Below are positions 1 to 16,584 of a DNA stretch of 64,000 bases, piece by piece. The DNA comes from a phage. Location: the sequence record PX880101.1, one strand, 5' to 3'. How positions within the stretch are numbered: position 1 is the first letter of the stretch; every line of letters starts with the position of its first letter. Under the pieces are notes generated by a model that saw only the letters and a program-made list of their open reading frames with translations, ran no database searches and was not told where the DNA came from. The position numbers were made by a program, and so were the translations under genes.

Positions 1-3
1 AAG

Positions 4-1503
4 ATGATTATGACTGTAGACCTTGTTGATGGCACAATCATCTATGTTCCTTTAGCTCAATATGCTGTCAGCATCTCAGAGGACAAGAATGTTGCAGAAA
101 TTCATATTGATTTTGAGGACTGCGTCGGGATGGACCAGAACAACAACATGATGGGTGTTGATCCTCGGCAGGTGAGAAGGATTTTAATACCGCTCATGCC
201 TAAAGACTGGGTAAGTAATAGCACAGACCCGAGAACGGAAAATGTAGAGTGTGAGTTGCGCCTAGATCTGCTCCAGCCAGACACAGGCTGGAAAATGATG
301 CAACTTAACAATATTCAGGTGAAAGAGCACGACGTTGGGATCTGCACAGCATATGACGATATGTGGAACGTATCCCCTTTAAGGGTGTTGAACAATATCA
401 AACGTCTGGGCTATACCGGAACCATAAACCATTATGTTGGTATGAGCCATTATTATGACTACACATGGTCAGGAACCCAATGGTCTATAAACAGAACAGG
501 GGCGCTAAACGCTGCAGCTTATAAATGGCATGATGATTTTATGTACAATGCCAAACGACATAACTTCGACGTTATGCAGTCTGTAAGTTTTGAGCTTTAC
601 AGCGATGCCTGTCCGTTGGAATGGACCCAAAGAGACTGGAACGATAACTACGCTAAAACAGGGTATACACCTTGTAGCTACCTCCTGTCTCCAACCATTG
701 AAGAGGGTATGAATTTCCTTACTGCAGTATTTAAGAATTTTGCATCAGCCGCTATGAGAAACAACCTGCCAGTGATTATGCAGGTTGGTGAACCGTGGTG
801 GTGGTACAATACCGATACTCGTAGACCTTGTATTTATGATTACCCTACAAAACAGGCGTTTTATGATGAGACAGGCGAGTATGCATTAGATATTGGGACT
901 ATTGACGATCCTAAAACTGGCGGTGTTTACGACAAGTATGTAGCATTTTGTCGTGGTAAGCTTGGCGCTCGTATTGCGGCTATTTCAAAGGCGATAAAAG
1001 CACACGCTGCATCAGCTCAGATGACAGCTTTGCTGTTTTTCCCAACCATTATGGAAACCGAGCTTACGCAAAAGCTGAACCTTGCTGACCAATATAAAAA
1101 GGAAGCAGGTGCTCTTGATTTCTTCTGCACTGAGTGTTACGATTGGGTGATGCAGGGAGGTATTGAAAAGGCAAAAGAGTCTGTAAACATACCTATCGTT
1201 AAGTTAGGTTGGCAACCGTCTGAAATACAATACCTTGCAGGGTTCGTTCCTAGTAAAGAGCTTGCTCCGGTATATGGCTACGACCCAACTAGGAATTACC
1301 AAGAATTTTTATGGAGATGTATTTGCGGAAACATGGCAACTATAGAATATAGATACCCTGAGGTAAAACAGTATGTGTGGGCATACCCGCAAGTAATGTC
1401 TGACAGCATCACTGTTACCGCTAGAGATTCTACCGTGCTTCATATGGGGCAGGTTGCTCTGAAAGGGTATGTAGAAGATGTTGTCCCGCCAAACTTCTCA
1501 TAA
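4..1503 (+). CDS. virion structural protein, tail/baseplate-associated (possibly 5'-truncated at window edge)
   Basis: 499-aa ORF; frame is open to the window start; sits directly upstream of the tail-fibre cluster; no catalytic motif recognised. Confidence 0.45.
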   Translation: MIMTVDLVDGTIIYVPLAQYAVSISEDKNVAEIHIDFEDCVGMDQNNNMMGVDPRQVRRILIPLMPKDWVSNSTDPRTENVECELRLDLLQPDTGWKMMQLNNIQVKEHDVGICTAYDDMWNVSPLRVLNNIKRLGYTGTINHYVGMSHYYDYTWSGTQWSINRTGALNAAAYKWHDDFMYNAKRHNFDVMQSVSFELYSDACPLEWTQRDWNDNYAKTGYTPCSYLLSPTIEEGMNFLTAVFKNFASAAMRNNLPVIMQVGEPWWWYNTDTRRPCIYDYPTKQAFYDETGEYALDIGTIDDPKTGGVYDKYVAFCRGKLGARIAAISKAIKAHAASAQMTALLFFPTIMETELTQKLNLADQYKKEAGALDFFCTECYDWVMQGGIEKAKESVNIPIVKLGWQPSEIQYLAGFVPSKELAPVYGYDPTRNYQEFLWRCICGNMATIEYRYPEVKQYVWAYPQVMSDSITVTARDSTVLHMGQVALKGYVEDVVPPNFS

Positions 1504-1515
1504 TCAGGAGATAAA

Positions 1516-2556
1516 ATGTCAAAACCTAGTTTTCCATTAGAGATTTGGGCAGAGGAGGATCAGGTTCTGCCTAACACCCACAGACAGAACAGGCTACGCC
1601 CGATTGATGATTTGTGGAGAAAAGGTTGGGATCTTGGTCAAAAGCCCTCATGTGAAGAACTTAACTATATTTTCAATATGCTCGGAACTTGGGCAAAATA
1701 CATTGCTGACGAGCAGATCCCCGCTCAAGAAGGCCGTTATCTGGTACGTGATAATAACTTGAGTGATCTTTTGAACATCCCTGTTGCCCGTAGAAACCTT
1801 GGGATTATTACTAAGGAAGAGGCAGACGCCAGGTATGTAAAAGTTACAGGTGATACAATGACAGGCCCCTTGGGGTTGCAACGTATCAACTTTAAAGCTG
1901 CCGAGACAGATAAGGCTTGGATAGAGACAACTATTGGCCCAGATAAGACAACCCTCGACTTTGGGTTAAGTGATAATACCGGGTCGTTTGATGATGGTGG
2001 TACATCTACAGTAGATGCGTTTCGTTGGAGATTCCAGCCAACTCAGCCGGATATTAATCCAGAGTTCACTTTGATGTACCTTAACGCGATCACGGCTAAT
2101 CGTGCGCTGTTGAAAGTGGTAGGCAATGTTGAAGTTGTCGATAACATGAGGTGCAATAACCTTACTATCAGCAATACAGCAACATTCACCAACTGTAATG
2201 TGGCTAGTCAGTTGACGGCTGGGTCAGTATATGTTAATGGTGGTGCAAGTTGTGACAGTATAGTTGTAAGAAGCCAGCACTGTGTTGTCGGTAACAGAAA
2301 TGTGGTGCGCTCTGTGAACGGGGTGACGGCTAACGGTAACGGTGATGTAACGATCACTATCCCGCAGACAGGTGTGCAAGACATCAGAATCGGTGCAAGA
2401 CTTGTGGACGGAGTTTCTGAATCTCCAATCCGCAACGGCTACGTTGTCACAGGCTGGCATTTCGGTGACAAAAAAGAGATGCGTGGTTCAACCTACTGGG
2501 CAGGACCTTTACAAAAACTTGTAAATGGTCAATGGATCACTGTTAATTATGCATAG
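1516..2556 (+). CDS. tail fibre protein (paralog A)
   Basis: RBS aggaga; ARRNLG and GDTMTGPL motifs typical of phage tail fibres; N- and C-termini (…FVNGQWITVNYA) shared with the 3569-4615 product. Confidence 0.6.
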   Translation: MSKPSFPLEIWAEEDQVLPNTHRQNRLRPIDDLWRKGWDLGQKPSCEELNYIFNMLGTWAKYIADEQIPAQEGRYLVRDNNLSDLLNIPVARRNLGIITKEEADARYVKVTGDTMTGPLGLQRINFKAAETDKAWIETTIGPDKTTLDFGLSDNTGSFDDGGTSTVDAFRWRFQPTQPDINPEFTLMYLNAITANRALLKVVGNVEVVDNMRCNNLTISNTATFTNCNVASQLTAGSVYVNGGASCDSIVVRSQHCVVGNRNVVRSVNGVTANGNGDVTITIPQTGVQDIRIGARLVDGVSESPIRNGYVVTGWHFGDKKEMRGSTYWAGPLQKLVNGQWITVNYA

Positions 2557-2570
2557 ATCGGAGGACTAGC

Positions 2571-3155
2571 ATGAAAATACTTCAAGAGTTTAAACTTTAC
2601 CAACCGGGATCTGGCGAATACCACGCCAACAAGGAAACCAAGGAGCTGACCCCTCAAGAGGTTGAGGACTACACCGCATACACTGGGTATTTTTTACGTA
2701 ATGATGATGGCGATTGGTATGTGCAGTCACGAACATTACGACAAGAAAATCCGGGTTGTATCTTCCTACTTGTTGACGAGAAGGGAATTCTTAAGACATC
2801 TACAGAAGAACCTGATGCCTTATGGCCTGCTCCAGGTCTTCGTGTGGTTATCGCCAAAAAAGAAGAGGTACCAGAAAACATTATGCTTCACCACGACGCT
2901 TTGCGTTTAGTTGGTGATGAATTTGTCACAGACAATGAATTCTTTGTTCAACAGGCAGAGGGTGTCATAGAGACAGAACTTGCTTGGGCTACTGCTAGAA
3001 TTGGTGCCTATCAAGACATGATTGACCTTGAATATGATCTTACTGATGACCAGAAACGCAACATCAGAGATTTGAAAATGTACAGGGTAAAACTTCTTGA
3101 AATAGATACATCTAAAGCCCCTGACATTTTCTTCCCGGAGCGACCTACCCTCTAA
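2571..3155 (+). CDS. putative tail fibre assembly/chaperone protein
   Basis: 194-aa ORF directly after a fibre gene, strong RBS; size and position fit Tfa-like chaperones; assignment is positional. Confidence 0.35.
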   Translation: MKILQEFKLYQPGSGEYHANKETKELTPQEVEDYTAYTGYFLRNDDGDWYVQSRTLRQENPGCIFLLVDEKGILKTSTEEPDALWPAPGLRVVIAKKEEVPENIMLHHDALRLVGDEFVTDNEFFVQQAEGVIETELAWATARIGAYQDMIDLEYDLTDDQKRNIRDLKMYRVKLLEIDTSKAPDIFFPERPTL

Positions 3156-3166
3156 GAGGAGGTGTT

Positions 3167-3481
3167 GTGGAGTTGGATTTGGCGGCATTGTACGGTATCT
3201 GCATGGGTACCGTTGTCCCGATCTGTGTATGGGCTTTCAACCAGTGGCACACCAAATGGAAAGGCATTTCCAAGAGGTTAGATGAGCTGGAGAAAGACCT
3301 CATTTTAGTGAAAAATAGCATGGTTACAAAAGATAGACTTGATTCCATTATCGAGACCCGGTTAAGTAAGCTAGAGGCCGATATTAACGACCTTAAGCAA
3401 GATGTCAGGACAGATGTCTCCGGTATCAGAGCTGATGTGCAAAAGATTTTACACATGCTTGTAGAGCATAGTAAAAGGTAA
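3167..3481 (+). CDS. membrane-anchored coiled-coil protein
   Basis: GTG start after RBS aagaggagg; hydrophobic N-terminus (ICMGTVVPICVWAF) followed by heptad-like charged region. Confidence 0.45.
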   Translation: MELDLAALYGICMGTVVPICVWAFNQWHTKWKGISKRLDELEKDLILVKNSMVTKDRLDSIIETRLSKLEADINDLKQDVRTDVSGIRADVQKILHMLVEHSKR

Positions 3482-3568
3482 ACAAAGGTCAGAACGGCAA
3501 GGATGCCGTTCTTGCATTTTGTTCTCTAAAGTGTTAAAATAGTCCTTAAGGAATTTTCTCAGGAGAAC

Positions 3569-4615
3569 GTGATGACTAAACCAGTTATCCCTCTTGATAT
3601 TTGGGCCAATCAGGATGTTGTGCTTGAAAATACAGGAGAGTTGAACAAATCTCAACCGAGCAAAGAAGAGAGATTGAAAGGTTGGGATATGACACAAAGG
3701 ATAGCATGTGAAGTTGTTAACTTTGAACTCCATATGCTCTCTGCGTGGCTAAAGCATTTAACAGAAGATGTTGTCCCTGGATGGGATAATAGATTCTTAA
3801 GGGTCACTAATAATCTGGCAGACGTTCCAGACAAAGCTGCTGCACGTAAAGTTCTCAATGTATACTCGCCTGAAGAAATGGATGACCTTTATGTTGACAA
3901 GACTGGAGACACAATGATCCAGACTCAAACTTTAGGTCTTCAAAGAATTGAGTTTGCATCTGCGTCAACAGACAATGCGGCGATATACACCACCATAACT
4001 CCAGACAAGACGATGATGGATTTCTGGATTATGGACAACATCGGTGGCGCTGACGGCACAGACCTTGATGATCCTTCTCACCAAATAGATGGTTTCCGTT
4101 GGAGATTTCAACCTTCTGGTGGGCAGCCTGTGTTTTCGGCTATGAAGCTCAATGCTATAACTGCCAACCGTGCAAGACTGGCTATCCAAGGAAATCTTGA
4201 ATGCAATGATGCAAAAAGCTCCTCTGCAAATGCCAATGCGGTAACGATACCAAGAGCCACTGTTAATGGACAACAATCCTGCGGCAGCGCTCAAATAGGT
4301 GGAAGAGTAGATTGTAACGATAAAACCGCCAGGGGTCAATATGCAACAGTTGGTGGGAGAAACGTGGTCCGCAGGGTAAATGGTAGTAGCGCAGATAGCA
4401 GTGGTAACCTTACTATCCCTATGCCTAGTAGAGGTGTTGAAGATGTAAGGATAGCAAACCGCTTCAGAACCACCTACAGAGAATCAAGAGTATACCCTGG
4501 GCATGTAATGTGCTCCGGCAATTACGCCTATAAACACCCGTATCAAGGCGACTATTGGACTGGTGCCATTCAAAAATTTGTAAACGGTCAATGGATCACG
4601 ATATCTTATGCTTAA
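3569..4615 (+). CDS. tail fibre protein (paralog B)
   Basis: RBS aggaga; shares N-terminal PLxIWAxxD, AARKVLNV, GDTM, FRWRFQP, LNAITANRA and C-terminal FVNGQWITISYA with the 1516-2556 product. Confidence 0.6.
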   Translation: MMTKPVIPLDIWANQDVVLENTGELNKSQPSKEERLKGWDMTQRIACEVVNFELHMLSAWLKHLTEDVVPGWDNRFLRVTNNLADVPDKAAARKVLNVYSPEEMDDLYVDKTGDTMIQTQTLGLQRIEFASASTDNAAIYTTITPDKTMMDFWIMDNIGGADGTDLDDPSHQIDGFRWRFQPSGGQPVFSAMKLNAITANRARLAIQGNLECNDAKSSSANANAVTIPRATVNGQQSCGSAQIGGRVDCNDKTARGQYATVGGRNVVRRVNGSSADSSGNLTIPMPSRGVEDVRIANRFRTTYRESRVYPGHVMCSGNYAYKHPYQGDYWTGAIQKFVNGQWITISYA

Positions 4616-4624
4616 AGAGGGTAA

Positions 4625-4891
4625 ATGAAATTAACTCAGTTTTTATGGGGGTTGGTTGCGGCATCTGATGACCCTACGAAAGTGTCCCAATCTAAGCTAT
4701 GGTCAAACATAGGCATGGCAGTGATGACTGGGGTGTTTATTCATATGGGGTATAATGATACGCTTCCTGAATGGTATGCGTGGATATACGCACCTTCGGT
4801 AGCTTGCCCCCAGCTTATTAGCAAATTCATCTCGCTCCGGTGGGGTTGCCAGCACCCTGACCACGTTAAAAACGAAGAGCAAAAAGCTTAA
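4625..4891 (+). CDS. small protein with one hydrophobic segment, tail-fibre module
   Basis: 88-aa ORF, RBS agaggg; hydrophobic stretch NIGMAVMTGVFIHMGY. Confidence 0.4.
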   Translation: MKLTQFLWGLVAASDDPTKVSQSKLWSNIGMAVMTGVFIHMGYNDTLPEWYAWIYAPSVACPQLISKFISLRWGCQHPDHVKNEEQKA

Positions 4892-4900
4892 GGAGAAATC

Positions 4901-6646
4901 ATGGCGCAAGACATGACAAGCTTCGAGCAGGCGGTAGATCAAGTAATTGTTGATTCTGAACGTTTGCACTTGATTGTCAACGGTAACGCTGTGGATGAAG
5001 TTGTCGTAGAGGATGGGACCACTATCCCTACGGTACGAAAAGCCATGCTTGACACCCTTTATTTTAAAACGCCACCAATCCCTTGGGCGTATGGTGCATC
5101 CACAACAGTTTTTAACCAGTTGTATGAGTTTAAAGGGGATACAGGCACTCAGTGGTGGTACGCCCCAGCAGCATCAAAATCTAACCCGGTTAGGATGCCA
5201 GCAGATCCTTCACAATCTCCGAACTGGAGATTATATACCGATTCTGCAGTAATGGCAAAATACTACGCAAAACTTAACAGTCCAAGGTTCGAAGGTGACC
5301 CGAGAGTACCTACACCTCCAATGGACGATAAGTCCGAATCTATAGCAAACACAGAGTTTGTTGTTGACTATGTGGATAGCATATTTAAAGCCATGGAGGG
5401 GATGAAAGTTACTGTAGGATCTTTGGTGGTAAAAGGTCTTACAGAACTTGCCAACACCATAGTTGGGGGCACCCTTACCTTACACGGACCTGTTAATGGA
5501 GCAGATTCTACTGCACGCTTCAGGAACCTAATCCTTACGGCAAATACTTCTACACTAACTTTTGCGTGGAGCGATCCTAAGCATGCAGACTGGAGAAGCA
5601 CAGAGCTGCAACCTCATGAAGTATCAACTCACAGAGTTATAGCTGACACTATAACTTCTGGGAAACCAGTGGCTAATAACAACGATGTGCATTTTGATGG
5701 TCTAGGTAATAACTTTTTTGACTACGTGTACATTCGTGGTAATGCCATGAAGGCAGCCACCGAACCGACATTGCAGGTTGATGGGACCACCAGGGTTAAG
5801 AACCTTGAGGTGACAGGCACCGTTACAGGGATAACCTACTCTGTAGATGGCACCATGATCTACCCTAGCTATATTGAAAGCACGGGAGATGCACTGATCA
5901 ATGGAGATTTAGAGGTTGGTGGATCTATAGTCATTCGTGGCACAGCATCTGTCCAGAACATATCTTTAAATACTCTGAGGGTGAATGAGCGTGCCACTTT
6001 TGAAGGAGAGGGGCTTACAGCCAACAAAGGTGTAATTACCGAGCTGACAACCACCACTCTAACTGCAACAACTGCAAACTCTGAAAACTGCAACGTTACC
6101 AGAAACTTGCAGGTAAATGGAGATGTTAGTTTAAACGCAGCAGGGACGGGCACCACCTACCTTCACAACCTTGAAATATCAGGTACAGTGACTGGGTGGC
6201 TGCCAGACTTCTCTAATGTCAACTTTGTCTGTAATGGCATTAACTCCAGTGGCAAGATAACCACCTCTCAAGAAATTGAAGCTGGTAAAACTATTACTGC
6301 CCCTGCTTTCCATGCAGGGAAGGTGGAGTTTGACTTAGAGGAGGCTGACGCATCTAGTGGGACATGGACACCTAACGGGCAGGCCAATATGTATGTTGTC
6401 CACGCGAAAGGGGATTTTACAATAGGGCAATGGCCTGGAACATCGGCTGAAGATAAACCTTACCCGTTCACTGCAATCATCTATGTCATTCAAGATGCTG
6501 TAGGCCACAACGTGACTTTACACGATAAATATGCCATACTGTCGGCTACTCCTGTTATTAACAACAAAGCCAACAGTGTCACCTTGCTACAATTGACATA
6601 TTGTGGTGTTGGTGATATTGTGGATGTGGTTATTGCACAACGTTAA
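4901..6646 (+). CDS. tail fibre protein
   Basis: RBS aaggag; N-terminal SPRFEGDPRVPTPP…SESIANTEFV resembles the conserved tail-fibre N-terminal attachment motif (PTAPT…TQIATTAFV); repetitive Thr/Gly/Asn-rich shaft. Confidence 0.6.
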   Translation: MAQDMTSFEQAVDQVIVDSERLHLIVNGNAVDEVVVEDGTTIPTVRKAMLDTLYFKTPPIPWAYGASTTVFNQLYEFKGDTGTQWWYAPAASKSNPVRMPADPSQSPNWRLYTDSAVMAKYYAKLNSPRFEGDPRVPTPPMDDKSESIANTEFVVDYVDSIFKAMEGMKVTVGSLVVKGLTELANTIVGGTLTLHGPVNGADSTARFRNLILTANTSTLTFAWSDPKHADWRSTELQPHEVSTHRVIADTITSGKPVANNNDVHFDGLGNNFFDYVYIRGNAMKAATEPTLQVDGTTRVKNLEVTGTVTGITYSVDGTMIYPSYIESTGDALINGDLEVGGSIVIRGTASVQNISLNTLRVNERATFEGEGLTANKGVITELTTTTLTATTANSENCNVTRNLQVNGDVSLNAAGTGTTYLHNLEISGTVTGWLPDFSNVNFVCNGINSSGKITTSQEIEAGKTITAPAFHAGKVEFDLEEADASSGTWTPNGQANMYVVHAKGDFTIGQWPGTSAEDKPYPFTAIIYVIQDAVGHNVTLHDKYAILSATPVINNKANSVTLLQLTYCGVGDIVDVVIAQR

Positions 6647-6655
6647 TATATCTGA

Positions 6656-6680
6656 CCGCTCCTGACGGGGCGGTTTTCTT
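6656..6680 (+). terminator. intrinsic terminator-like hairpin between fibre gene and giant gene
   Basis: ccgctcc-tgac-ggggcgg stem-loop followed by ttttctt. Confidence 0.45.
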
Positions 6681-6694
6681 ATCTGGAGAACACA

Positions 6695-9600
6695 ATGCTT
6701 CCAATCCCTTTGCTAAAACTTGGTCGTCATTTCCTCGATAAGAGGGGTGGAGTTAAGGAACTTGCTGTTCTGTCATACCCAATAGACAACAGTGACGGTA
6801 CAAGCACTACAGTAGCTTATGTAAATAGCTTAGCTATACTTTTTGACGACGGTCAGCTTAATATTACTGGCTATAACAAGTTCGGGGAGTGTCGCACTGG
6901 GGATCGTAACCCTATAAACTACCCGAGCGAGACGGCCTGGAATGTTGATCATGTGTGGAGAGCAGACCGTGCGTTTGTGATCCGGACTTTTGATAACCAG
7001 TTTTTCTACATCGGCTGCACTGCAGGTCTTATCGGATCCACTGCGGCAGGTGGTAACGATGTTTGCGTAAACGAGTGGACACCTCTTCCGGAACAGATTG
7101 TTAAAGGGTTACACCTTGACACGCACCCAGAGCGCCTTGTTGAGGTGATGGGGGGTATTAACAACACTGTTTGGGTTATTGCAGAGGCAGAAGGCACTGG
7201 CATACTGAACCTGTATGGATCTGGTAACAACACCTACGGATCTTTGCATGTAGATAAAAACCAGCATGCAACTCCTGTAAAGATTGGTGAAACATCGGAA
7301 AATCCTGAAACAGGTCCTTGGAAAAACCCAAGCATTAACTGTGAGGTGCATGATAACTCTGTTATTTTCGGTGGTCCTAGAGGTTTCTGGATTGCTGGGT
7401 ACGACTTTCTGAGAAACAATAGTAGAAACACTCTCGTTTGGCCTCCTGCTCAGATTACCCGTGACGATTTGAGAGGAATTCCTGCAGATGAGGAGTGGAA
7501 AGGGTTCATGTGCGGTCCGAATGGGGCAGTGGTTGCAACACAAAGAATGCACAGACCTGATGACCAACAACTTGTTAACGTATTTTATGGTCAAAACGTT
7601 TGGGGAGATGATACCTGGCGTGCTTTGAATATAACCTACACCCATGAGGTGATAATGGCTCGTGGGTACGGCACAAGTGGCATTTTCTTCAACAATGGTA
7701 CTAAGCAGTATCGTGGCTTCTCTCGAAACCTGTGCAACGATATTGGCGCACAATCTGCAAACAATAACCCCCGTGCCGATTTTGTTCATTACCAGGCCCT
7801 TGCTACGGCTAAATATGTTGAGCAACGTTTGCCAGTTAGCTGGACAGAGAGTGTTTATTTCCAAGGCATCCATAGAGAAGGTTTTTTAGGGACCTTTACT
7901 GTTGTTAATGGTAAACTTTGGTGGTCAGGTATCCCAAGGGGAAGTTTTGCAGGCTCTAATAACCTGTTTGGCGGCAGACTTAATAGTCAAGGGTTCACAG
8001 AGGTTCCTGAGAATTGGTATAAAAATGTCCCAGTAGATAGTTGGGGTGTTGATGATATTTTTGACGTTAACGGTGTTAGCAGCGTTAGCAATATTTACAT
8101 TGGTGACACGGTCAAGATGAAATTGAAGCCTCAGCCAGAGGGGGCTACGTTCATTATTGACAAGATTGAGCTGGTAAATGCTGCGGGTACGGTTGTTACA
8201 GATGCAAATTACCAATTCTCCACCAACTGGAACCACGGCGGGGCCAACGAAGTTGTTGTTACTCAGTATAACAGGAATGTTAACAGACGTGGCCTGTACT
8301 CTGTAAAAATAACCTATCATGACAAGCATGGCACAGGAAGAACTCACACGACAAGGACTTTGAACTGGAACACCATAGTTCCTGCGTATCCTTCTGACGG
8401 TAAGTGGCATACCGTTGGTAGAAACAAGCAGTTCCATGTTAACGATACTGTATACTTCGGGCTGAATGGGACTCAGCCTGCGGTAGAAGGAGATACATCG
8501 TATATGGTCCGACTCCACAGAATGGATGCTGGATCAGTCACCTATGATGTTACCCAAGAGATTTATGATCAGAGACGAAATACCTACAACAACTTAGTGC
8601 AGACACAGGCCGTATGGGAGTTCAACCCTAACGGCAGAGGCGGTAAAATGTTGCAGGTTAACGAGCAAAACGGAACGTCGTTGACTGTCCACGAACACCC
8701 AGACCCTTGGCCTGATCCTGGAAAACCTCACCCAGGTGCTCGTACACTGAAAATTGTCAGCCATGATGCAGGATATTTCGGAATACGCTGGGAAGCCACA
8801 GTAAGATATGCCGACGGGACAACAAACAACATAGGGATTACACTTGGAGGCACTAGTGAAGATAGCTCTCTGAAAATTGCCTACACTCCTAGAGGTATTT
8901 CTATTGATAATATGGATGTTGTTCGCAACGGTTACGGGGATGTGAACATCAAAGTTACTCTTGGTGAACATCTTGGCGGGGAAAGGATCATCATGTACGC
9001 CTTTGATCACGACCCACGCACTGACGGAACCTATGCAGACCAAGCGTGGAGCTACCTGATAAGCGCACCTGAGCCAAATACCAAAGAATTCTACTACGGT
9101 ATGAAACGGGATGTGTGCAAGAAAACAGGGACACATGACTGGATTGCAATCTGCGTTAAAGATGAACGTACCGCTTGGGACGAGCCTGTTAACAGATGGT
9201 TCATAGGAATTCCCACTCGAAGTGATAAATACGTTGAAGAATATATTGTATGCATGGGCGGCACCAACCTCAACATGTGTTGGAACGAGGATGCAAACAA
9301 ATACTCTGATTACGATTATATGAGGGATTACTCTTGCAATCAATGGTTTAACCAAACCGGGTATGCTAATCGACAGTCAAGAGTAAACCCTGCAATCTTT
9401 ACAGATACGCAGGTTTTCTTGACAAAACAGGCCAACGAGGTTCAGACCTTCAAGAACAAATACGACCCTAACAAGTGGTTTTATAACTGTTATGGCGCAT
9501 TTTTCTGGGGGCCAGGGGAACTGCCTAACGGGGGATCTTGCTTCGAGGCTGCAACTTACGCCAGTGATTACATCATGGGGCAGGTTAAGAAGTATAAGAT

Positions 9601-12328
9601 AATTCCAGGGCCTGAAACTCTTGGTAATGCCGTTGATCCTTATATCATCATGACTGCGCTGAGATCAAACATGGACGGGACATCTATGTCTATGCAGATC
9701 CCAGTAACAAATGGGTACAAACGTGTCGTGATGATTATTAAGTGTGACTTAATAGGTAAACAAGTCCTTGCAGAAAACGGGACCTCCACACATCCTTTTG
9801 AAATTGCTCTGCACTATCAGTTTGCTGACTCACCTTTTTCAGGAGATAAGCGAATATCTGATACAGATGCGCAGCGTTGTAAGAAGGTATTGTTGGGTGC
9901 AGGTTGGTGGTGGTATGAATTTGATTTAACAGACAAATTCACCGACACGTCAAAAGTTGTAACAGGACTTCGTCTAGACCTTGGCGAGAACATGCACAAA
10001 GCTGTTTGTGATGGCACCTATGGTGACCCTACAGTATATCTGAAGTATGTCTCTTTTGAGCATCCGGAAGATGTTGTTTACGGTCCAAAACTGAGATTGT
10101 TTGGCAGTTGGATTGCAAAAGACAGGGTAGGCATGGGTAAAAAGGTAAGAGGGTTCTTGGTTGATGCAGGAACAGAAGACATGCTGGTTAATGCAGTGTG
10201 GCCTGAATTACCTGGGACTCAGTGGGATAACTCAGCCAAGTCTATAAACTGGTTCAACATTCACAGAGCTATGTGGACCACTAACTGCTATTTGTGGAGA
10301 GAGCTTAACGATCAGGCTTTTGGCTTCAGTAACGGCAGAAGGATGGCGATCATTTGCTGGACAACGCTGCAAAGATGTTATGACCATGACTACGAGATTG
10401 GGGGCAGGGCATGGAAAAACATCAGGGATAGAATCATAACCAATTTTGCAGACGACAACGGCGGTGGAGCACATAACTTCGGCACAAGTAGACTTATTCA
10501 CTTGAATGGGTCATCCGCGTATAAGAAAGAGGGTTACTCCGGATCCATGATCGAGTGGGGTCTGGTGAAAGATGCTCGCGTATTGATGGGTCAACAACTT
10601 GCTGCTGCAATAGGTCCTAACGCAGTGCAGTCTGTTAAGCCAGCGTGGTTCGATATACCAATATGGTCATCTGGAACACCGGGAACTGCGGCAATCAACC
10701 CTACCACGGGGGATTTGGAAATCTCTTGGGAGGACTTAAAGCAGGTTGGTGGCTGGGATAAGACAGGGTACCAGGTACAATGGTGGAGATCTGACGGATC
10801 GTTAGCAGCTGATGAGTTTGTTAAGGACAATTTCTACACTATGTCCTCTGCAAAAGCCCAGCAATTGTTTGGTCAGGCCACTCCGTCAACAATCACCATG
10901 TCTATGTGTTGTAAAGACAACAGAACTGGAGCTTTGGGACCAAGGGTTGCTAAAGTTTTCTCAGGTATTAAATGGAATCTCCCTGTTCAAAGTGTTTCAT
11001 GGAAGCAAATAGGTGATAACAAGCTACTGGTTACTCCCGCCTGCCAGTTCAACGCAACCCTCAACGTTGATCCGGCTGTTGCAGCAAACTCAGCTAAAGC
11101 TTCTGACTTCTCTGTGTCTAACACTGCCATGGCAGATGTGAGAAAGATTGATACACTGAATGCCAGAATTACCTGTAAAAACACTTATGGCACATTCCAG
11201 ATCATCAACAACTTCACAGATTCTGATTCTAAGGTAGTGAGGACAGCAAGCCAGACTATGCAGTTGGGAACTCTGGCATACTCTGCCTTGATCACTGAAC
11301 AATCTCCTACCCTTCAGGGTGGGGGTGTTGGTAAGTTGATCACAACACCTGTGTGGAAGCCAAATGAGTGGGTTGTGTTTGATTTGACTGTAGACTTCTC
11401 CAGTGACAATAACTGGACATGGGTAAGGAATTGCTTGTCACAGTTGATGGGTGGTCCAAGCTCTGTTAGTGATAGCCACGACTCTACTGACCCGAGCGTG
11501 TTCCAGGTGGGTAAAACTCACCCAGAAACTGGGGCACAGTTGCCTGACAGGAAGTATGCTTTGGTTTGCATCTCCAACGGCAAGGCAGATGTAACCTTCT
11601 CAGGGACACACGCATATAACGGCACTTACAACTTCTCTAAAAAGTACAGCCTCAAGGCAGGTAACATTGTAGATGAAGTTGGTGCGTTGTATAATCCAGG
11701 TAACGGCATAGGGATTGTGGGCGGTAAACTGCAGATGCAGGAACCTTCTATTACCCCTTCCAATGTGCCAGGGATTAGAAAGACTTGGGAAAGTAGTAAT
11801 ACTAACATTGCAACAGTGGATGCTACCACAGGATTGGTAACATTTAAAGCCCCTGGTAATGTCACTATAAAGTTTGTAGTTACGGATGATGCAGGCCGCA
11901 AAACGTCTTCAACATCTTTCACTGTCAGACAGATGGCACCTCAGTGGAGAATGTGGATAGGCACAGCAACAAACGGGGCATACCCTAATCCGGCAGGGAC
12001 TTCTGGTATGAAGACTTTCTCTACAAGCAAGCCGATGGAGTACGGCAGCGGTCCTAAGGTAGGGCAGATGGTGTACTTTGGTGCATATATTCCTGAAATT
12101 ATAGGGCTTCCGAGAAGTCAGCTTCAGTTGCTGTTTGGAGCTGGTGTTGACGAGCTTGCCACTTTTGGGTATAGCGACAACATCGAGGCTGCAAGGAGTT
12201 CCGGATGGGTAGGGTTCAGAATGGAGTCTGGAAAGGAAGGCAGGATTCTAGGGACAGCCTCTATAGGTGTTATGTTCCCTGGTGACCAGCAGTATCGTCT
12301 GGGAGCCTACGCGACTTTCTCTCTTTAA
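6695..12328 (+). CDS. giant virion-associated protein (1877 aa) with C-terminal Ig-like (Big_2-type) domain
   Basis: Uninterrupted 5.6-kb ORF, RBS ggag; Trp/Gly/Asn-rich, not coiled-coil biased; C-terminal segment ATVDATTGLVTFKAPGNVTIKFVVTDDAGRKTSSTSFTV resembles bacterial Ig-like domains; last gene of the structural block. Confidence 0.55.
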   Translation: MLPIPLLKLGRHFLDKRGGVKELAVLSYPIDNSDGTSTTVAYVNSLAILFDDGQLNITGYNKFGECRTGDRNPINYPSETAWNVDHVWRADRAFVIRTFDNQFFYIGCTAGLIGSTAAGGNDVCVNEWTPLPEQIVKGLHLDTHPERLVEVMGGINNTVWVIAEAEGTGILNLYGSGNNTYGSLHVDKNQHATPVKIGETSENPETGPWKNPSINCEVHDNSVIFGGPRGFWIAGYDFLRNNSRNTLVWPPAQITRDDLRGIPADEEWKGFMCGPNGAVVATQRMHRPDDQQLVNVFYGQNVWGDDTWRALNITYTHEVIMARGYGTSGIFFNNGTKQYRGFSRNLCNDIGAQSANNNPRADFVHYQALATAKYVEQRLPVSWTESVYFQGIHREGFLGTFTVVNGKLWWSGIPRGSFAGSNNLFGGRLNSQGFTEVPENWYKNVPVDSWGVDDIFDVNGVSSVSNIYIGDTVKMKLKPQPEGATFIIDKIELVNAAGTVVTDANYQFSTNWNHGGANEVVVTQYNRNVNRRGLYSVKITYHDKHGTGRTHTTRTLNWNTIVPAYPSDGKWHTVGRNKQFHVNDTVYFGLNGTQPAVEGDTSYMVRLHRMDAGSVTYDVTQEIYDQRRNTYNNLVQTQAVWEFNPNGRGGKMLQVNEQNGTSLTVHEHPDPWPDPGKPHPGARTLKIVSHDAGYFGIRWEATVRYADGTTNNIGITLGGTSEDSSLKIAYTPRGISIDNMDVVRNGYGDVNIKVTLGEHLGGERIIMYAFDHDPRTDGTYADQAWSYLISAPEPNTKEFYYGMKRDVCKKTGTHDWIAICVKDERTAWDEPVNRWFIGIPTRSDKYVEEYIVCMGGTNLNMCWNEDANKYSDYDYMRDYSCNQWFNQTGYANRQSRVNPAIFTDTQVFLTKQANEVQTFKNKYDPNKWFYNCYGAFFWGPGELPNGGSCFEAATYASDYIMGQVKKYKIIPGPETLGNAVDPYIIMTALRSNMDGTSMSMQIPVTNGYKRVVMIIKCDLIGKQVLAENGTSTHPFEIALHYQFADSPFSGDKRISDTDAQRCKKVLLGAGWWWYEFDLTDKFTDTSKVVTGLRLDLGENMHKAVCDGTYGDPTVYLKYVSFEHPEDVVYGPKLRLFGSWIAKDRVGMGKKVRGFLVDAGTEDMLVNAVWPELPGTQWDNSAKSINWFNIHRAMWTTNCYLWRELNDQAFGFSNGRRMAIICWTTLQRCYDHDYEIGGRAWKNIRDRIITNFADDNGGGAHNFGTSRLIHLNGSSAYKKEGYSGSMIEWGLVKDARVLMGQQLAAAIGPNAVQSVKPAWFDIPIWSSGTPGTAAINPTTGDLEISWEDLKQVGGWDKTGYQVQWWRSDGSLAADEFVKDNFYTMSSAKAQQLFGQATPSTITMSMCCKDNRTGALGPRVAKVFSGIKWNLPVQSVSWKQIGDNKLLVTPACQFNATLNVDPAVAANSAKASDFSVSNTAMADVRKIDTLNARITCKNTYGTFQIINNFTDSDSKVVRTASQTMQLGTLAYSALITEQSPTLQGGGVGKLITTPVWKPNEWVVFDLTVDFSSDNNWTWVRNCLSQLMGGPSSVSDSHDSTDPSVFQVGKTHPETGAQLPDRKYALVCISNGKADVTFSGTHAYNGTYNFSKKYSLKAGNIVDEVGALYNPGNGIGIVGGKLQMQEPSITPSNVPGIRKTWESSNTNIATVDATTGLVTFKAPGNVTIKFVVTDDAGRKTSSTSFTVRQMAPQWRMWIGTATNGAYPNPAGTSGMKTFSTSKPMEYGSGPKVGQMVYFGAYIPEIIGLPRSQLQLLFGAGVDELATFGYSDNIEAARSSGWVGFRMESGKEGRILGTASIGVMFPGDQQYRLGAYATFSL

Positions 12329-12340
12329 CAAGTAGTAGAT

Positions 12341-12371
12341 AAAAAAGGGGCCAAATGGCCCCTTTCTTTTT
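12341..12371. terminator. bidirectional intrinsic terminator
   Basis: aaaaaa-ggggcc-aaat-ggcccc-tttcttttt: perfect GC hairpin flanked by A-run and T-run, between convergent gene blocks. Confidence 0.75.
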
Positions 12372-12375
12372 ATAG

Positions 12376-12576
12376 TTAGTAATACTCCCAACATGCCCCA
12401 TCTTCAGACGGCTTGACGCGCTTACCTTTATGGTCAACATAGGTATAGCCACAACCTTCACAAATAACAGGTGCCGCATAACCTTCCTTCCACTGGTCTT
12501 CTGTGATCAGTCCTTCCAGATCTCTGCAGTCAAAACCAAACAACTCTTCAGAACAATCTTTGCAAAAATCAGCCAT
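12376..12576 (-). CDS. zinc-ribbon protein
   Basis: 66 aa with CKDC…C…CEGC cysteine pairs; RBS gagga. Confidence 0.5.
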   Translation of the reverse strand: MADFCKDCSEELFGFDCRDLEGLITEDQWKEGYAAPVICEGCGYTYVDHKGKRVKPSEDGACWEYY

Positions 12577-12579
12577 TTC

Positions 12580-13062
12580 TCAGTCCTCGCATTTAACAAA
12601 TTTTTCTACAGATCCACCAAGCACAGCTTGTTGTTTGATGGCACTTACTTCATCATAGTGGATAGACTTATGTTCCGTACCTCCGAACTTACCTGTGTGG
12701 AAGGTGTGCACCCAAATCTCTTTGGGAAGGGATTTATTCTCTTCTTCCACCAATTCCCACATACCCCACAAGTGATCTGTGATATCTTTGATGAAATATC
12801 CCTCGCCGAGGTTTGTATTCACACTATAGGCCGATTCGTGATCTCCGCAAATATAACGGAAGGCAGTGTACTCTTTCCCAGGTGTGAAGTGGGTATCCAT
12901 CAGTATAGCTGTTAGAGAATTAGGGTCTCGAAAGCCCAAGAACTTTAGTTTAACAATTTCGACGTTCACACTTGCAAGATTATCCATGACAATCTCCTCT
13001 GCTTGGTTGATGAGATAATCATATATAAATCTGGTGTTGATGTCAAGCTTAATTTTAAGCAA
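12580..13062 (-). CDS. hypothetical protein
   Basis: 160-aa ORF in leftward array, 3-nt spacing to downstream gene. Confidence 0.5.
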   Translation of the reverse strand: MLKIKLDINTRFIYDYLINQAEEIVMDNLASVNVEIVKLKFLGFRDPNSLTAILMDTHFTPGKEYTAFRYICGDHESAYSVNTNLGEGYFIKDITDHLWGMWELVEEENKSLPKEIWVHTFHTGKFGGTEHKSIHYDEVSAIKQQAVLGGSVEKFVKCED

Positions 13063-13150
13063 TTTGAGAGGGTATTTTATTTAGAGAGGTAATCACACAG
13101 AGGTGGGCAGTTTATGAAGGCACAGGCCTCGTTTGAGGCCTTAAAACAGA

Positions 13151-13531
13151 TTATGACGATTTGACGTAGCGCTCTGACAAAGCTGGGAAGCCAAAAGCAG
13201 CACCTACACTACCGTACGCTATCCACCATTGAAGTTCATCGTGACACCATTTTCCGATCAGAAAGGTGCTGGGGTAGCGAGTCAGTATTTTGGCATAAGC
13301 TTTAGGGTCTGCATCCTCTGGGATAATGATGCTTGGAACATCTTTGTTATGACCACAGCAGCAGTTTAGAGTTTTCAATCCTGCCGCCCATAGACTCATG
13401 ATAGGTTTAGCCATGCACTTATCAAGGCACACACGTTTTTTGCCGTCACGGAGCTTTTTAGGCACATCAACGATAACATTTGGATGCTTGGCACCTTTCA
13501 CTTTCCAATTATAAGATTTACACTTGCACAT
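13151..13531 (-). CDS. cysteine-rich hypothetical protein
   Basis: 126 aa, multiple Cys clusters (CKCK, CLDKC, NCCCGHN) suggesting metal binding. Confidence 0.5.
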   Translation of the reverse strand: MCKCKSYNWKVKGAKHPNVIVDVPKKLRDGKKRVCLDKCMAKPIMSLWAAGLKTLNCCCGHNKDVPSIIIPEDADPKAYAKILTRYPSTFLIGKWCHDELQWWIAYGSVGAAFGFPALSERYVKSS

Positions 13532-13561
13532 TTAGTCAGTCTCCATCTAGAAAGCCATACT

Positions 13562-13732
13562 TTACTTAAAGTCTTTGTCACCTATTACGATTGCACGAAT
13601 CCACTCATTGTGATGCTCAATGGATGTAAGGTGTAACATAATGCAGTGATTGTCATTACCAAACACGGCTCGATAAGCCTTAGCAGCACCATGATATAAC
13701 TTCCACATCACGTAATGGTATCTTCGTTTCAT
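13562..13732 (-). CDS. small hypothetical protein (56 aa)
   Basis: Not in ORF track (<60 aa); ATG overlaps the stop of the upstream gene as ATGA, suggesting translational coupling. Confidence 0.3.
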   Translation of the reverse strand: MKRRYHYVMWKLYHGAAKAYRAVFGNDNHCIMLHLTSIEHHNEWIRAIVIGDKDFK

Positions 13733-14208
13733 GGTTCTTTCTCCGGTTCAGGATCTGGGTAATCTTCAATAATAAAGGGCCATCCGTTACGCTTAGCGTC
13801 AGACTTATACTCAATCTCCTTCATTGCAAACTCTAACTGATTCTTAGCCGGAATGCAAGCTGGAGAGTCATCAACCCAGATGTCTGGGTAGATATCAAAC
13901 TGCGCCAGATAAGCGGCCTTCTGAACGCCTCCAGTATAAAACACTCCAACATCGAGCTCCTTGCGCCAGTATTCGATGTCCACGTTGTCTTGAGTGATGA
14001 ATCGGGAAGTCACAAGATAGACTGTCCACCCTTCCTTCTTCAGGTCCTTAATAAGGCGGGAGAAGATGAAAGGGCTCGCATTAAACGTTCCATCAAAGTC
14101 AATAGCAATGATGTGTGTGCCGTGACGAGTCTCATATGGATTACTCGTGGTGAGATTGCTGTAGTTAAAAGGTACTTCTTCTCCGCAGTAGCTGTAGTCC
14201 ATATTCAC
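13729..14208 (-). CDS. HAD-superfamily phosphatase (possible 5'-deoxynucleotidase)
   Basis: HAD motif I IIAIDFDGTF (DxDGT) and motif IV-like IWVDDSP. Confidence 0.55.
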   Translation of the reverse strand: MNMDYSYCGEEVPFNYSNLTTSNPYETRHGTHIIAIDFDGTFNASPFIFSRLIKDLKKEGWTVYLVTSRFITQDNVDIEYWRKELDVGVFYTGGVQKAAYLAQFDIYPDIWVDDSPACIPAKNQLEFAMKEIEYKSDAKRNGWPFIIEDYPDPEPEKEP

Positions 14209-14480
14209 ACCTTCTCGTTGATAAATTTACGGGCGGTTTGGTGAGTTGTTTCTGCTGTCTTCAGAATGATATTAATTTTATTGTCAAGATCATTCATCTC
14301 AGCAGTTAATTCAGGAATCTCTCCCGCATGCATGGTGAAATCATACATAGACATACCCAGGATCTCATTGATGCGGCGGTTGCATTCTGCAGCACGCTGG
14401 TTCATTTTCCAAGCTAACACCAAAGCCTCCTGCGTAGCCTCCAGTGCAAAGTCTAATACGTCAGCTTCTTCTTTCGTCAT
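14205..14480 (-). CDS. hypothetical protein
   Basis: 91-aa ORF, 4-nt overlap with downstream gene. Confidence 0.5.
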   Translation of the reverse strand: MTKEEADVLDFALEATQEALVLAWKMNQRAAECNRRINEILGMSMYDFTMHAGEIPELTAEMNDLDNKINIILKTAETTHQTARKFINEKV

Positions 14481-14536
14481 CTCAGTCTCTCTTGTTGTAT
14501 TGTTGATAGGCGTATGAATGCTTTATAACTCACCTT

Positions 14537-15103
14537 TTATTCAAACTGCAATAGCAAATCCACTACCGCGCTAGGTCTGTCAACAAATTCCCCAGGCCCA
14601 CATGCCCACAGAGGGTATCCGTCTACATACCGCCAAATCCAACCTGCAGTGTGGAGTTCTAGCAGGGCAGTACCGTCCTTACTGTCAACCACTCTTTCCC
14701 ACAGTGTTGGGCAGCGAAGCTTGAGGATCGGATCCCCTCCCTTATACCCATCCATGTAGATACCCATCGCAAAGTTTAACATCATCTTTTTGTGCACTGA
14801 CCTCTTACTGAGGGTGCTCATCACTTCCTCTTTGTGAATGTTTGTAAGCTTCTCCTTGGCTACCCGCAGATCATTGCAGCCATTGTTCAGAAGATCTTCC
14901 AGACACTTGATCCGAAGGTCGTGAATATCTTTGTCGTGCACCGTTGGTACAGGGTCGTAGCGATAAAGCACCGTTGATACAAGGTTGCTCGGGTGTGGGT
15001 CTGACAGCAACCCATAACCCCAATACTCCTCTGTATCTGAAAGGACAAGACACCCAATGTCTCTGTCAAGCTTTCCTGTGTTGTAAGCCACATTGACCGC
15101 CAT
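14537..15103 (-). CDS. hypothetical protein
   Basis: 188-aa ORF in leftward array. Confidence 0.5.
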   Translation of the reverse strand: MAVNVAYNTGKLDRDIGCLVLSDTEEYWGYGLLSDPHPSNLVSTVLYRYDPVPTVHDKDIHDLRIKCLEDLLNNGCNDLRVAKEKLTNIHKEEVMSTLSKRSVHKKMMLNFAMGIYMDGYKGGDPILKLRCPTLWERVVDSKDGTALLELHTAGWIWRYVDGYPLWACGPGEFVDRPSAVVDLLLQFE

Positions 15104-15105
15104 AA

Positions 15106-15351
15106 TTATAGCTCCACTAGCAAAGTGCTCTCAAAATGCCTCTCATGCAGACCGTTATAAGGAACCACTTCCACAACACCGTCGCGGATGTATGGAGTCA
15201 TCATGGTGACATAATCACCGAACGGGTTGACATTATCACTAACCACGACCACATGCTGTCCCTCCTTGGCAGAGTGCCAGATAGATCTGCACTTCATCAT
15301 GTGTTCGAGAGCGCCAGGTAAAATCTTGTTACGTTCTTTACGGGTCTTCAT
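15106..15351 (-). CDS. hypothetical protein
   Basis: 81-aa ORF, tight spacing. Confidence 0.45.
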   Translation of the reverse strand: MKTRKERNKILPGALEHMMKCRSIWHSAKEGQHVVVVSDNVNPFGDYVTMMTPYIRDGVVEVVPYNGLHERHFESTLLVEL

Positions 15352-15797
15352 AACAGATATAGCTCCTTATGAAAGTGGGCTTTCAATTTCTCACCGAGAA
15401 ACTTCTTGATACCTTCCTCTAAAGTGTTTTCGATGTAGTCCAACTTAACTGCTTCGATGGACATATCATAGATCGCCAGCTCTAAGCTGTCAAGTCCCAT
15501 CATAGCATGAACCATAAGATTTTCATCTTCAGATACATTCAGGGGACTTCCTATAACATCTGGAGGCAGAATAGTTTCCCAATTATTCTGGGCGGTAGAT
15601 CTCCCGCCATCCACCTTACGTCTCAGCTCGAATGTATTCTTAGTGTAGAACACTTCATAAGAAACGATACGACTGTCACTCTCATAATAGACGAAGTTCA
15701 AGTAGGAGCCCAGCCGTAGTCGGCAAACTTCTACCCCAAACCATTGTTTCTTATAAGAATTCAGGCTAATGCTGTCGCATTCACGTTTGCTCAACAC
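15348..15797 (-). CDS. hypothetical protein
   Basis: 149-aa ORF, 4-nt overlap with next gene. Confidence 0.5.
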   Translation of the reverse strand: MLSKRECDSISLNSYKKQWFGVEVCRLRLGSYLNFVYYESDSRIVSYEVFYTKNTFELRRKVDGGRSTAQNNWETILPPDVIGSPLNVSEDENLMVHAMMGLDSLELAIYDMSIEAVKLDYIENTLEEGIKKFLGEKLKAHFHKELYLL

Positions 15798-15813
15798 GGC
15801 TCTCTCCTTCTTG

Positions 15814-16047
15814 TTAATCTTCGTAAATAATGATTTCTGCTTTAGGTTTTCGTGCTTTCAGGTCCAGCTCTATCCAGTGCACCATCGCTGTTTCAAGAAA
15901 AACAGCCTGGATGCATCCGTCTTCAGCGTGCCCTACCAGCATAACAAGATCTTCACATTCATCATCTGCATCACGGACATACAAGATCTCTCCAGATTCA
16001 AAGTCTTTCACAACCTGATTGCTGGATAATTTACGAATTTTTGCCAT
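15814..16047 (-). CDS. hypothetical protein
   Basis: 77-aa ORF. Confidence 0.45.
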   Translation of the reverse strand: MAKIRKLSSNQVVKDFESGEILYVRDADDECEDLVMLVGHAEDGCIQAVFLETAMVHWIELDLKARKPKAEIIIYED

Positions 16048-16048
16048 A

Positions 16049-16312
16049 TCAGAAACCCTCTAAAAAGCTCTTGTAGAAAATAATCTCAGTATCCACACCA
16101 GTCACGATCTTGTCGTTCCTGATTTCATCTGTAAGATAGGTGTCAAAACGCAGCACCTGTGTGGTATTGTCACACATCCACTCGGCTGTGACCATGGCAA
16201 AAATCTTGGCATCTTCATTATCTGGTGTGAATGTTACCACCTCACCGCATTTAAACTTTTCGATAGGTTGCGTGTTAGCTTTTGGTTCTGCAATGGTGAT
16301 TTTTGTAGTCAT
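16049..16312 (-). CDS. hypothetical protein
   Basis: 87-aa ORF. Confidence 0.45.
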   Translation of the reverse strand: MTTKITIAEPKANTQPIEKFKCGEVVTFTPDNEDAKIFAMVTAEWMCDNTTQVLRFDTYLTDEIRNDKIVTGVDTEIIFYKSFLEGF

Positions 16313-16578
16313 TACTCTTCCTCCATAGTTTCACCAAATACTTCGATACGAGCGTCAAGCTCTGTTGCTTTCAGCTCCCCGACAAAATCTTTCAGTTCTT
16401 TCTCGTCAAGATCATATGCCCACACACAAGATGAGCATGCAGATTTCACGATTAGCAGTGTAGATACACGGCCTGACTCTGTAATCATGCTCACAATGGT
16501 TCCTACAGGGAACGTGTTGATAGCTTTTTTAACTGGGCGTTCAGCTTTAATTACTACCTCTGTTGCCATAAATACCAT
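16312..16578 (-). CDS. hypothetical protein
   Basis: 88-aa ORF, 1-nt overlap with the adjacent gene. Confidence 0.45.
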   Translation of the reverse strand: MVFMATEVVIKAERPVKKAINTFPVGTIVSMITESGRVSTLLIVKSACSSCVWAYDLDEKELKDFVGELKATELDARIEVFGETMEEE

Positions 16579-16584
16579 CCTCTC

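Follow-up and report, generated by a model that had tools for sequence, protein, structure and literature searches.

In phage rV5, two related short tail fibre proteins, gp30 and gp33, were described in the genome paper of Kropinski 2013, which reported 42% identity between them and suggested that they serve the recognition of two lipopolysaccharide (LPS) chemotypes (PMC3606486). Maffei 2021 later assigned to the Vequintavirinae sensu stricto a pair of paralogous short tail fibre proteins with a chaperone, related the locus by homology to its single-copy counterpart in phi92-like phages and, in the end, to GpS/GpU of Mu, and saw no considerable allelic variation in the two paralogues (PMC8594841). 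The sequence considered here, record PX880101.1, is 64,000 nt of phage DNA (this whole stretch is called the window), and near its start are two similar fibre genes that an earlier note, made from the sequence alone, had described as a duplicated tail-fibre cassette. The two-paralogue feature is real and ordinary, and with publications dating back to 2013 both the observation and the core of its interpretation are already known. Additions made here are a terminator-like and a late-promoter-like signal ahead of the gp30 gene, and indications that gp30 is the faster-evolving copy at its docking end and tip. The reading we consider likely is that of a short-tail-fibre cassette with two old paralogues and a single tail fibre assembly (Tfa) chaperone, in which gp30 is an extra copy that most likely provides a second specificity and is not a switchable alternative.

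Positions 1-8000 of the window are 95–97.5% identical to the genomes of more than 100 Vequintavirus phages in GenBank (including rV5, FV3, S127 BCL3, Murica and BASEL phages), and the window is that of a Vequintavirus, an rV5-like myophage. The open reading frame (ORF) at 1516-2556 is rV5 gp33 and that at 3572-4615 is rV5 gp30. Gene order and sizes match those of rV5_ev147, FV3 and DrSchubert (gp34 - gp33 - Tfa - gp31 - gp30 - gp29 - gp28), and the five cassette products have the same lengths in the window as in rV5 (346, 194, 104, 347 and 88 aa). The rV5 genome paper, in a supplementary table of genes, likewise gives sizes for gp30-gp33 that equal those of the window (PMC3606486), and in DrSchubert the five genes are labeled, in order, short tail fiber protein, tail fiber chaperone, hypothetical protein, short tail fiber protein and hypothetical protein. 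The two fibre genes and the chaperone gene are as follows.

1516..2556, + strand: short tail fibre paralogue 1 (rV5 gp33 orthologue, 346 aa; PHROG 4465, E 3.9e-171)
2571..3155, + strand: tail fibre assembly chaperone (rV5 gp32, 194 aa), the only one in the cassette (Pfam PF02413 Caudo_TAP; PHROG 136)
3572..4615, + strand: short tail fibre paralogue 2 (rV5 gp30 orthologue, 347 aa; PHROG 4465, E 4.8e-163)

That the window carries two similar tail-fibre genes, as first proposed from the letters of the sequence, was borne out by pairwise alignment. The gp33 and gp30 products share 152/356 identities (43%) and 58% positives (BLASTP, E 5e-95), and both match PHROG 4465 'tail fiber protein' (a profile of 342 positions) end to end, over residues 1-346 in copy 1 and 2-348 in copy 2. 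The motifs PL[ED]IWA..D.VL.NT, GDTM, FRWRFQP, LNAITANRA and [LF]VNGQWIT[VI].YA are present in both, so that most of the shared blocks listed in the earlier note were recovered, although AARxxLN is exact only in copy 2 and reads VARRNLG in copy 1. Divergence had been placed in the middle of the proteins, but in 30-aa windows the identity falls to about 27–30% in three stretches, near aa 40-100, 205-250 and 290-330. Copy 2 had been given as 3569-4615; the ORF exists, but its likely start is ATG 3572 rather than GTG 3569, there being an AGGAG box 6 nt upstream of this ATG. The product then has the 347 aa of rV5 gp30, and in every annotated relative the gene begins at the equivalent ATG. At the DNA level the codon-aligned genes are 52% identical, and the best tract common to both copies, found at their 3' ends, covers 63 nt with 75% identity. 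Since DNA identity is just 52%, the duplication is an old one and not a recent tandem repeat, and these values also rule out gene conversion. A Pfam and NCBIfam scan of the fibres and small ORFs gave nothing above threshold except Caudo_TAP and the TIM barrel encoded upstream.

Both fibre genes are intact and under strong purifying selection. The ratio of nonsynonymous to synonymous substitution rates (dN/dS), estimated from 5-8 orthologues per gene (window, rV5_ev147, FV3, DrSchubert and IMG/VR contigs; dS about 0.2), is 0.022 for gp33 and 0.062 for gp30, with 0.055 for the chaperone gp32, and every examined copy is full-length, without internal stops. Neither gene is the pseudogene that had been named as the finding that would count against two functional fibres. 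By tblastn, the gp33 type occurs at ≥99% aa identity in 94 records and at 95–99% in 22, and the gp30 type at 95–100% in 113; both genes are present in about 116-117 records, and the whole cassette is collinear in 114 records. The gp30 allele of the window is that of S127 BCL3 (100%), with 15 scattered differences from the rV5 allele. An IMG/VR scan for further orthologues returned 4 loci, and the two-fibre layout is also found in a metagenomic relative whose gp33-type protein is just 73% identical. As both proteins are nearly invariant within the genus, they do not explain host-range differences between isolates, and this near-invariance argues that both may target conserved structures rather than set the strain range. 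For the broadened or dual host range with which the earlier note had found the two copies consistent, the 2013 suggestion is the sole support.

The architecture of the fibres can be followed best in paralogue 1, where three segments were delimited.

1516..1839, + strand: predicted N-terminal baseplate-docking domain of paralogue 1 (aa 1-108; phmmer match to 9cuy_c)
2131..2265, + strand: low-identity central stretch of paralogue 1 (aa ~206-250), read as shaft (21% identity to paralogue 2; insertions in the family)
2371..2553, + strand: C-terminal head of paralogue 1 (aa 286-346), a Mu GpS-like tip (phmmer and Foldseek to 5yvq_A)

In phiTE, the N-terminal joint of the short fibre (modelled residues 3-92) sits on baseplate wedge protein 1 (PMC11972413), and in phi92 the corresponding protein gp147, fibre III, is attached to the bottom of the wedge protein gp145 (PMC13450770). 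Residues 1-108 of gp33 match residues 1-111 of the phiTE short tail fibre 9cuy_c (phmmer, E 1.5e-19), and residues 2-83 of gp30 match the same chain (E 1.4e-8). The N-terminal ~100 aa of both proteins are predicted to be a baseplate-docking domain, and the common attachment domain postulated in the earlier note is supported by this homology to a wedge-docking domain.

At the other end, gp33 aa 286-343 align to residues 440-501 of the Mu tail fibre protein S, 5yvq_A (phmmer; whole-sequence E 1.7e-6), while for gp30 no sequence-level phmmer match to Mu GpS was obtained. Structure prediction, which had been recommended as a check, was carried out for both proteins with AlphaFold2 (AF2). The monomer models are of low confidence, with a mean predicted local distance difference test score (pLDDT) of 64 for gp33 and 59 for gp30 and a predicted TM-score (pTM) of about 0.3, as expected for chains of a trimeric fibre. 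Even so, the sole significant Foldseek match in the PDB for either of these low-confidence models is again 5yvq_A (E 6.3e-8 for gp33 and 1.6e-6 for gp30), and a Vequintavirinae short-fibre density with a Mu-like C-terminus has been reported with RBPseg (PMC12143355).

A family alignment of 26 members showed conservation of the N-terminal ~200 aa and of a VxGRNVVRxVNGxxADxxGN motif. The stretch that matches gp33 aa ~205-250 varies greatly in length by means of repeat-like sequence, and the most sequence-variable segment lies near the C-terminus, between the conserved VQDIR and QKLVNGxW motifs. In the gp33 model the central stretch has a pLDDT of 84-93 without globular secondary structure, and is read as a shaft of variable length and not as a receptor module. 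The last ~58 aa of gp33 (aa 287-344) are 57–59% identical to fibre tips in unrelated Salmonella and E. coli phages of ~47-53 kb, with 58% for Salmonella phages of ~52 kb, which points to horizontal exchange of the putative Mu-like head as a module. Phages with a gp33-like tip include SPLA2, brunost, birk, rivia and PEA2-3. The Mu-like alignment, the variability of the tip and its occurrence as a separate module together place the predicted receptor-binding, chaperone-dependent module in the C-terminal ~60 aa, and the central segments, which had been taken for receptor-recognition modules, correspond to the length-variable shaft.

The chaperone gp32 has a Caudo_TAP domain (PF02413) at residues 121-192 (E 8.4e-12) and is 33% identical to the Tfa of phage Av-05, a member of the genus Avunavirus with a single short fibre gene. 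Tfa proteins attach to the fibre's distal end with an N-terminal domain that varies, and they trimerise by conserved helices at the C-terminus (PMC9608196). The gp33 gene is directly followed by the Caudo_TAP gene, and the gp30 gene by a gene for an 88-aa membrane protein, without a chaperone gene of its own. The C-terminal motif YW.G..QK.VNGQWIT..YA is common to the two fibres and coincides with their best-conserved DNA tract, and this shared motif, together with the single Tfa gene, fits a chaperone common to both.

By position, gp33 is the ancestral-type copy. Its gene is the positional orthologue of the single short fibre gene in Av-05, in GAP31 (Seunavirus) and in phi92 (gp147), and it is followed by the Tfa gene. 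The docking domain and tip show the same: gp33 aa 1-65 are 57–64% identical to single-copy fibres of other genera, 39% to those of phi92-like phages and 42% to gp30, and the tip is 56% identical to the tips of Av-05 and phi92-like phages. The gp30 gene occupies the exact position at which Av-05 and GAP31, both single-copy, have a gene for a 157-aa membrane protein, and judging from this synteny it was inserted between two ancestral membrane-protein genes. Of 33 N-terminal columns (aa 1-62) that are ≥85% conserved in 27 single-copy fibres, the gp33 type keeps 31 and the gp30 type 17 (Fisher p 2e-4), while conserved columns outside the N-terminus are kept about equally (52/70 in gp33 and 49/70 in gp30); the sequence RPIDDLW of gp33, nearly invariant elsewhere, is QPxKEER in gp30. 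In relative-rate tests with five outgroups from other genera, gp30 had 57-74 unique changes against 20-41 in gp33 (p 2e-5 to 0.13), and with the phi92-like PaulScherrer as outgroup 43 against 22 (p 0.013), so that p was below 0.02 with 5/6 outgroups. The excess of gp30 changes falls mostly in aa 1-65 and 292-346. These comparisons mark gp30 as the putative extra, faster-evolving copy, diverged at its docking end and tip.

The 90 nt spacer before the gp30 gene (3482-3571) contains a terminator-like hairpin, a promoter-like motif and the AGGAG box ahead of ATG 3572. Two of these are detailed here.

3491..3512, + strand: terminator-like hairpin with T-rich tail between the gp31 and gp30 genes (stem of 9 pairs, 5 of them G-C; loop of 4; tail TGCATTTTGT)
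3532..3541, + strand: TGTTAAAATA, late-promoter-like, 1 mismatch from rV5 TggTAaAAtA (pattern search; 30 nt upstream of ATG 3572)

The late-promoter motif of rV5 is TggTAaAAtA (PMC3606486). The two signals are a hint, and only a hint, that the gp30 gene may be transcribed separately inside the late operon, from a late promoter of its own.

In the mechanism we propose, each fibre protein would form a homotrimer whose N-terminal ~100 aa plug into the baseplate wedge with the fibre pointing downward; the middle would be the shaft, and the C-terminal ~60-aa head, folded with the help of gp32, would bind the LPS core. Lateral fibres would first engage surface glycans, and binding by the short fibres would then help baseplate rearrangement and sheath contraction, a trigger role that has been proposed for the downward-pointing short fibres (fibre III) of phi92 (PMC13450770). 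The part of gp30 would be to contribute a second specificity, directed at a conserved surface structure. Receptor genetics of relatives concern the LPS core: the rV5-like phage LL12 requires the outer-core glucose I, with an efficiency of plating of ~1e-6 on waaG and a milder defect on waaP (PMC7229145), and all BASEL Vequintavirinae fail on waaC and waaG mutants (PMC8594841). The conserved gp33 tip, common to phi92-like phages, is the natural candidate to account for the glucose I requirement.

Several observations weigh against this reading. The K-12 genetics of LL12 gave one LPS requirement, glucose I, and not two (PMC7229145). According to the text of the rV5 paper, gp30, gp32 and gp33 are among the detected proteins (PMC3606486), but the mass spectrometry table (Additional file 5, Table S5) lists 19 proteins (61, 60, 64, 53, 52, 133, 79, 152, 82, 34, 237, 41, 62, 235, 106, 37, 1, 27 and 228) without any of these three, and direct virion evidence for both paralogues is weaker than the literature suggests. 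In cryo-electron microscopy of Bas49 and Bas54 (7-9.5 Å), the short-fibre density cannot separate the paralogues (PMC12143355). There is also the matter of room on the baseplate, since phi92 has six sites for a single short fibre (PMC13450770), and the wedge gene has the same size (~1.49 kb) in rV5-like phages and in the single-copy PaulScherrer and GAP31; the gene annotated in the wedge region of Av-05, likewise single-copy, has a lower length of 1191 nt. The fold evidence for the head rests on a local 3Di alignment of low-confidence AF2 monomers, with TM-scores to 5yvq of 0.15-0.16. The late-promoter pattern is frequent, with 15 matches in the window against 6.6 expected, and the site ahead of gp30 has 1 mismatch. 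In neighbour-joining trees, finally, gp30 and gp33 grouped as sisters in 49% of bootstraps overall; by region, the support was 0% at the N-terminus, 64% across aa 111-205 and 19% at the C-terminus. With sister support of 49%, what looks like faster evolution of gp30 could have another cause, either a deeper divergence or an origin in another phage.

Among the alternatives, the one that survives best is that gp30 is no longer a wedge-bound short fibre and that its remodelled N-terminus docks elsewhere, on another fibre or at another baseplate site. We think this unlikely, yet it draws on several of the results above: the change of RPIDDLW to QPxKEER, with just 17 of the 33 conserved N-terminal columns kept against 31 in gp33; the failure of the N-terminal regions of gp30 and gp33 to group in any of 100 neighbour-joining bootstraps; the absence of extra length in the wedge gene of the two-copy genus; and the mere six short-fibre sites of phi92. 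Fibre-fibre contacts and unassigned densities were, moreover, reported for Bas49 and Bas54 by RBPseg (PMC12143355). Set against it are the continued match of gp30 to the phiTE docking domain (E 1.4e-8) and the retention in gp30 of all fully invariant N-terminal residues (P4, P7, W11, A12, L18, N25, P29, G37, D39, E47, N50 and W59). A bolder version, to our minds similarly doubtful, makes gp30 an old extra copy that has been neofunctionalised: transcribed from a late promoter of its own, placed by its remodelled docking domain at a baseplate or fibre site other than that of gp33, and provided with a diverged tip for a second conserved surface structure. If true, phages of the rV5 type would have two separate sets of short fibres that differ in position and in ligand.

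Less probable still, and in our view improbable, is that gp33 and gp30 are competitors for one set of six wedge sites, or assemble into heterotrimers, so that virions are mosaics with a fibre mix set by relative expression. The homologous docking domains speak for this, as does a C-terminal motif common to both proteins and suited to a single chaperone, and the separate promoter- and terminator-like signals ahead of gp30 could set a different dose; on the other side, 43% identity and indels in the shaft probably make in-register heterotrimers of gp33 and gp30 unlikely. We give very little credence to the two being alternative fibres of which one at a time is expressed by way of a switch, as in Mu S/S' or P1. 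The tip and chaperone are indeed homologous to GpS/GpU of Mu, but the genes are co-oriented on the + strand and collinear in 114 records, and there is no second chaperone gene. In a search of 1300-5000, the longest inverted repeats were of 14-19 nt at 78–86% complementarity, and none flanks a cassette. With both genes on one strand and no flanking inverted repeats in 1300-5000, an inversion switch of the Mu/P1 type is ruled out, and the word 'alternative', which the earlier note had allowed for these fibres, does not apply. That one copy is a decaying or redundant duplicate is about as implausible, for it has the duplication itself in its favour and nothing more, and pseudogene status or decay is ruled out by the dN/dS values (0.022 and 0.062), the full-length ORFs in all genomes examined and the keeping of both copies in the 73%-identical relative.

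The likely reading remains that of two old paralogues with one chaperone, gp30 being the extra copy. The genes around and between them, all on the + strand, are listed below.

4..1503, + strand: upstream lateral fibre, C-terminal part (rV5 gp34 type), with an N4 gp65-like TIM barrel (Pfam PF23845, E 6.4e-80)
3167..3481, + strand: 104-aa protein with N-terminal transmembrane segment (aa 3-24) and coiled coil (rV5 gp31; PHROG 5345, function unknown)
4625..4891, + strand: 88-aa small membrane protein (rV5 gp29; PHROG 1322 'membrane protein')
4901..6646, + strand: next lateral tail fibre gene (rV5 gp28 type, 581 aa; PHROG 4549, E 2.6e-250; relatives' annotation)

The small ORFs had been taken for accessories that follow each fibre copy. 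There is one chaperone, after copy 1 only, and the two small membrane-protein genes are found in single-copy relatives as well: gp31 has a homologue in Av-05 (33% identity, E 1e-21), and gp29 is 51% identical to Av-05 gp104 (E 4e-32). In both Av-05 and GAP31 the fibre gene is followed by those for Tfa, the 104-aa protein, a 157-aa polytopic membrane protein and an ~88-aa protein, after which comes the next fibre gene, and this synteny rules out copy-specific accessory genes. With homologues in single-copy relatives, the gp31 and gp29 genes are not fibre-specific accessories, and comparison of the gene orders identifies them as ancestral neighbours that predate the second fibre copy. Such small membrane-protein genes are conserved inside the Vequintavirinae tail-fibre cluster and are under strong purifying selection (dN/dS 0.026 for gp31 and 0.015 for gp29).

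Positions 1-6646 are a compact series of late structural genes on the + strand. The upstream fibre gene encodes an exact GMSHY k-mer at 439-453, and a 2026 preprint (10.64898/2026.04.02.716166) reports that this k-mer predicts whether the N4 glycan receptor (NGR) is bound. Elsewhere in the window, GC skew is negative at 12000-20000 and 60000-64000, which suggests minus-strand gene blocks; in annotated relatives, minus-strand genes come directly after the gene for an 1877-aa fibre with immunoglobulin-like (Ig-like) domains. No tRNA genes were found in the whole 64-kb window.

Some database records related to the cassette carry unexpected labels. A gp30-type protein 77% identical to the window copy is recorded at NCBI as an Escherichia coli hypothetical protein on a 136,793-bp contig. 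The contig probably represents a Vequintavirus-like genome that was co-assembled with a bacterial isolate. Sixteen 'Campylobacter phage' records (host Campylobacter jejuni; e.g., MG065662 and MG065672) are ~95% identical to positions 1-8000 of the window, and others match the phi92-like short fibre gene at 98%. These host labels look doubtful.

Phages of the rV5 type rank among the E. coli phages that are isolated most often, and they are candidates for use in therapy and biocontrol; their short fibres probably make the final contact with the LPS core that commits the tail to contraction. The boundaries between docking domain, shaft and ~60-aa Mu-like head are those to use in fibre-swapping design. 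Where each paralogue sits on the baseplate, what the virion contains and which LPS core structures are bound are questions of modest, specialist interest.

Among known systems, T4 gp12 is a functional analogue, being a baseplate-bound secondary-receptor fibre that binds the LPS core. Its chaperone is gp57A, unlike the Tfa of the window cassette. HHpred matches of gp30 and gp33 to 1PDI (T4 gp12) were reported by Kropinski 2013 (PMC3606486); T4 gp12 chains (1PDI/1H6W) are found for neither paralogue among the phmmer PDB matches at E≤1 or in the Foldseek lists. The short fibre of phiTE (PDB 9CUY/9MJN) has an N-terminal ~108 aa homologous to the window fibres, but this phage is flagellotropic, and its 554-aa fibre includes a long coiled coil and, distally, Ig-like domains. 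The likeness to GpS/GpU of Mu (5YVQ) lies in the gp33 head, which aligns to Mu 440-501, and in the Caudo_TAP chaperone gene downstream; identity to Mu GpS is ~16%, and the docking domain of the window fibres is of the phiTE/phi92 type and not of the Mu type. Mu differs also in its invertible G segment and S'/U' pair, neither of which is present in the window, where one chaperone is found with two fibres. In the phi92-like phages, the short fibre gp147 and its chaperone gp148 are homologous to the cassette (the PaulScherrer orthologue has 98.1% DNA identity to phi92 gene 147), and the locus shares neighbours with it, with wedge genes upstream and a chaperone and ~110-aa protein downstream. The PaulScherrer short fibre is 30% identical to gp33 and 23% to gp30, with its tip 56% identical to the gp33 tip. 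The differences are that phi92-like phages have one fibre copy and that the shaft is largely unalignable (tblastn covers 38% of the query). Closest of all is rV5 itself, whose gp33, gp30 and gp32 are the same genes, with identities of ≥99% for the gp33 type and 95–100% for the gp30 type to most of the 116-117 records, and between the rV5 locus and that of the window there is no difference of substance.

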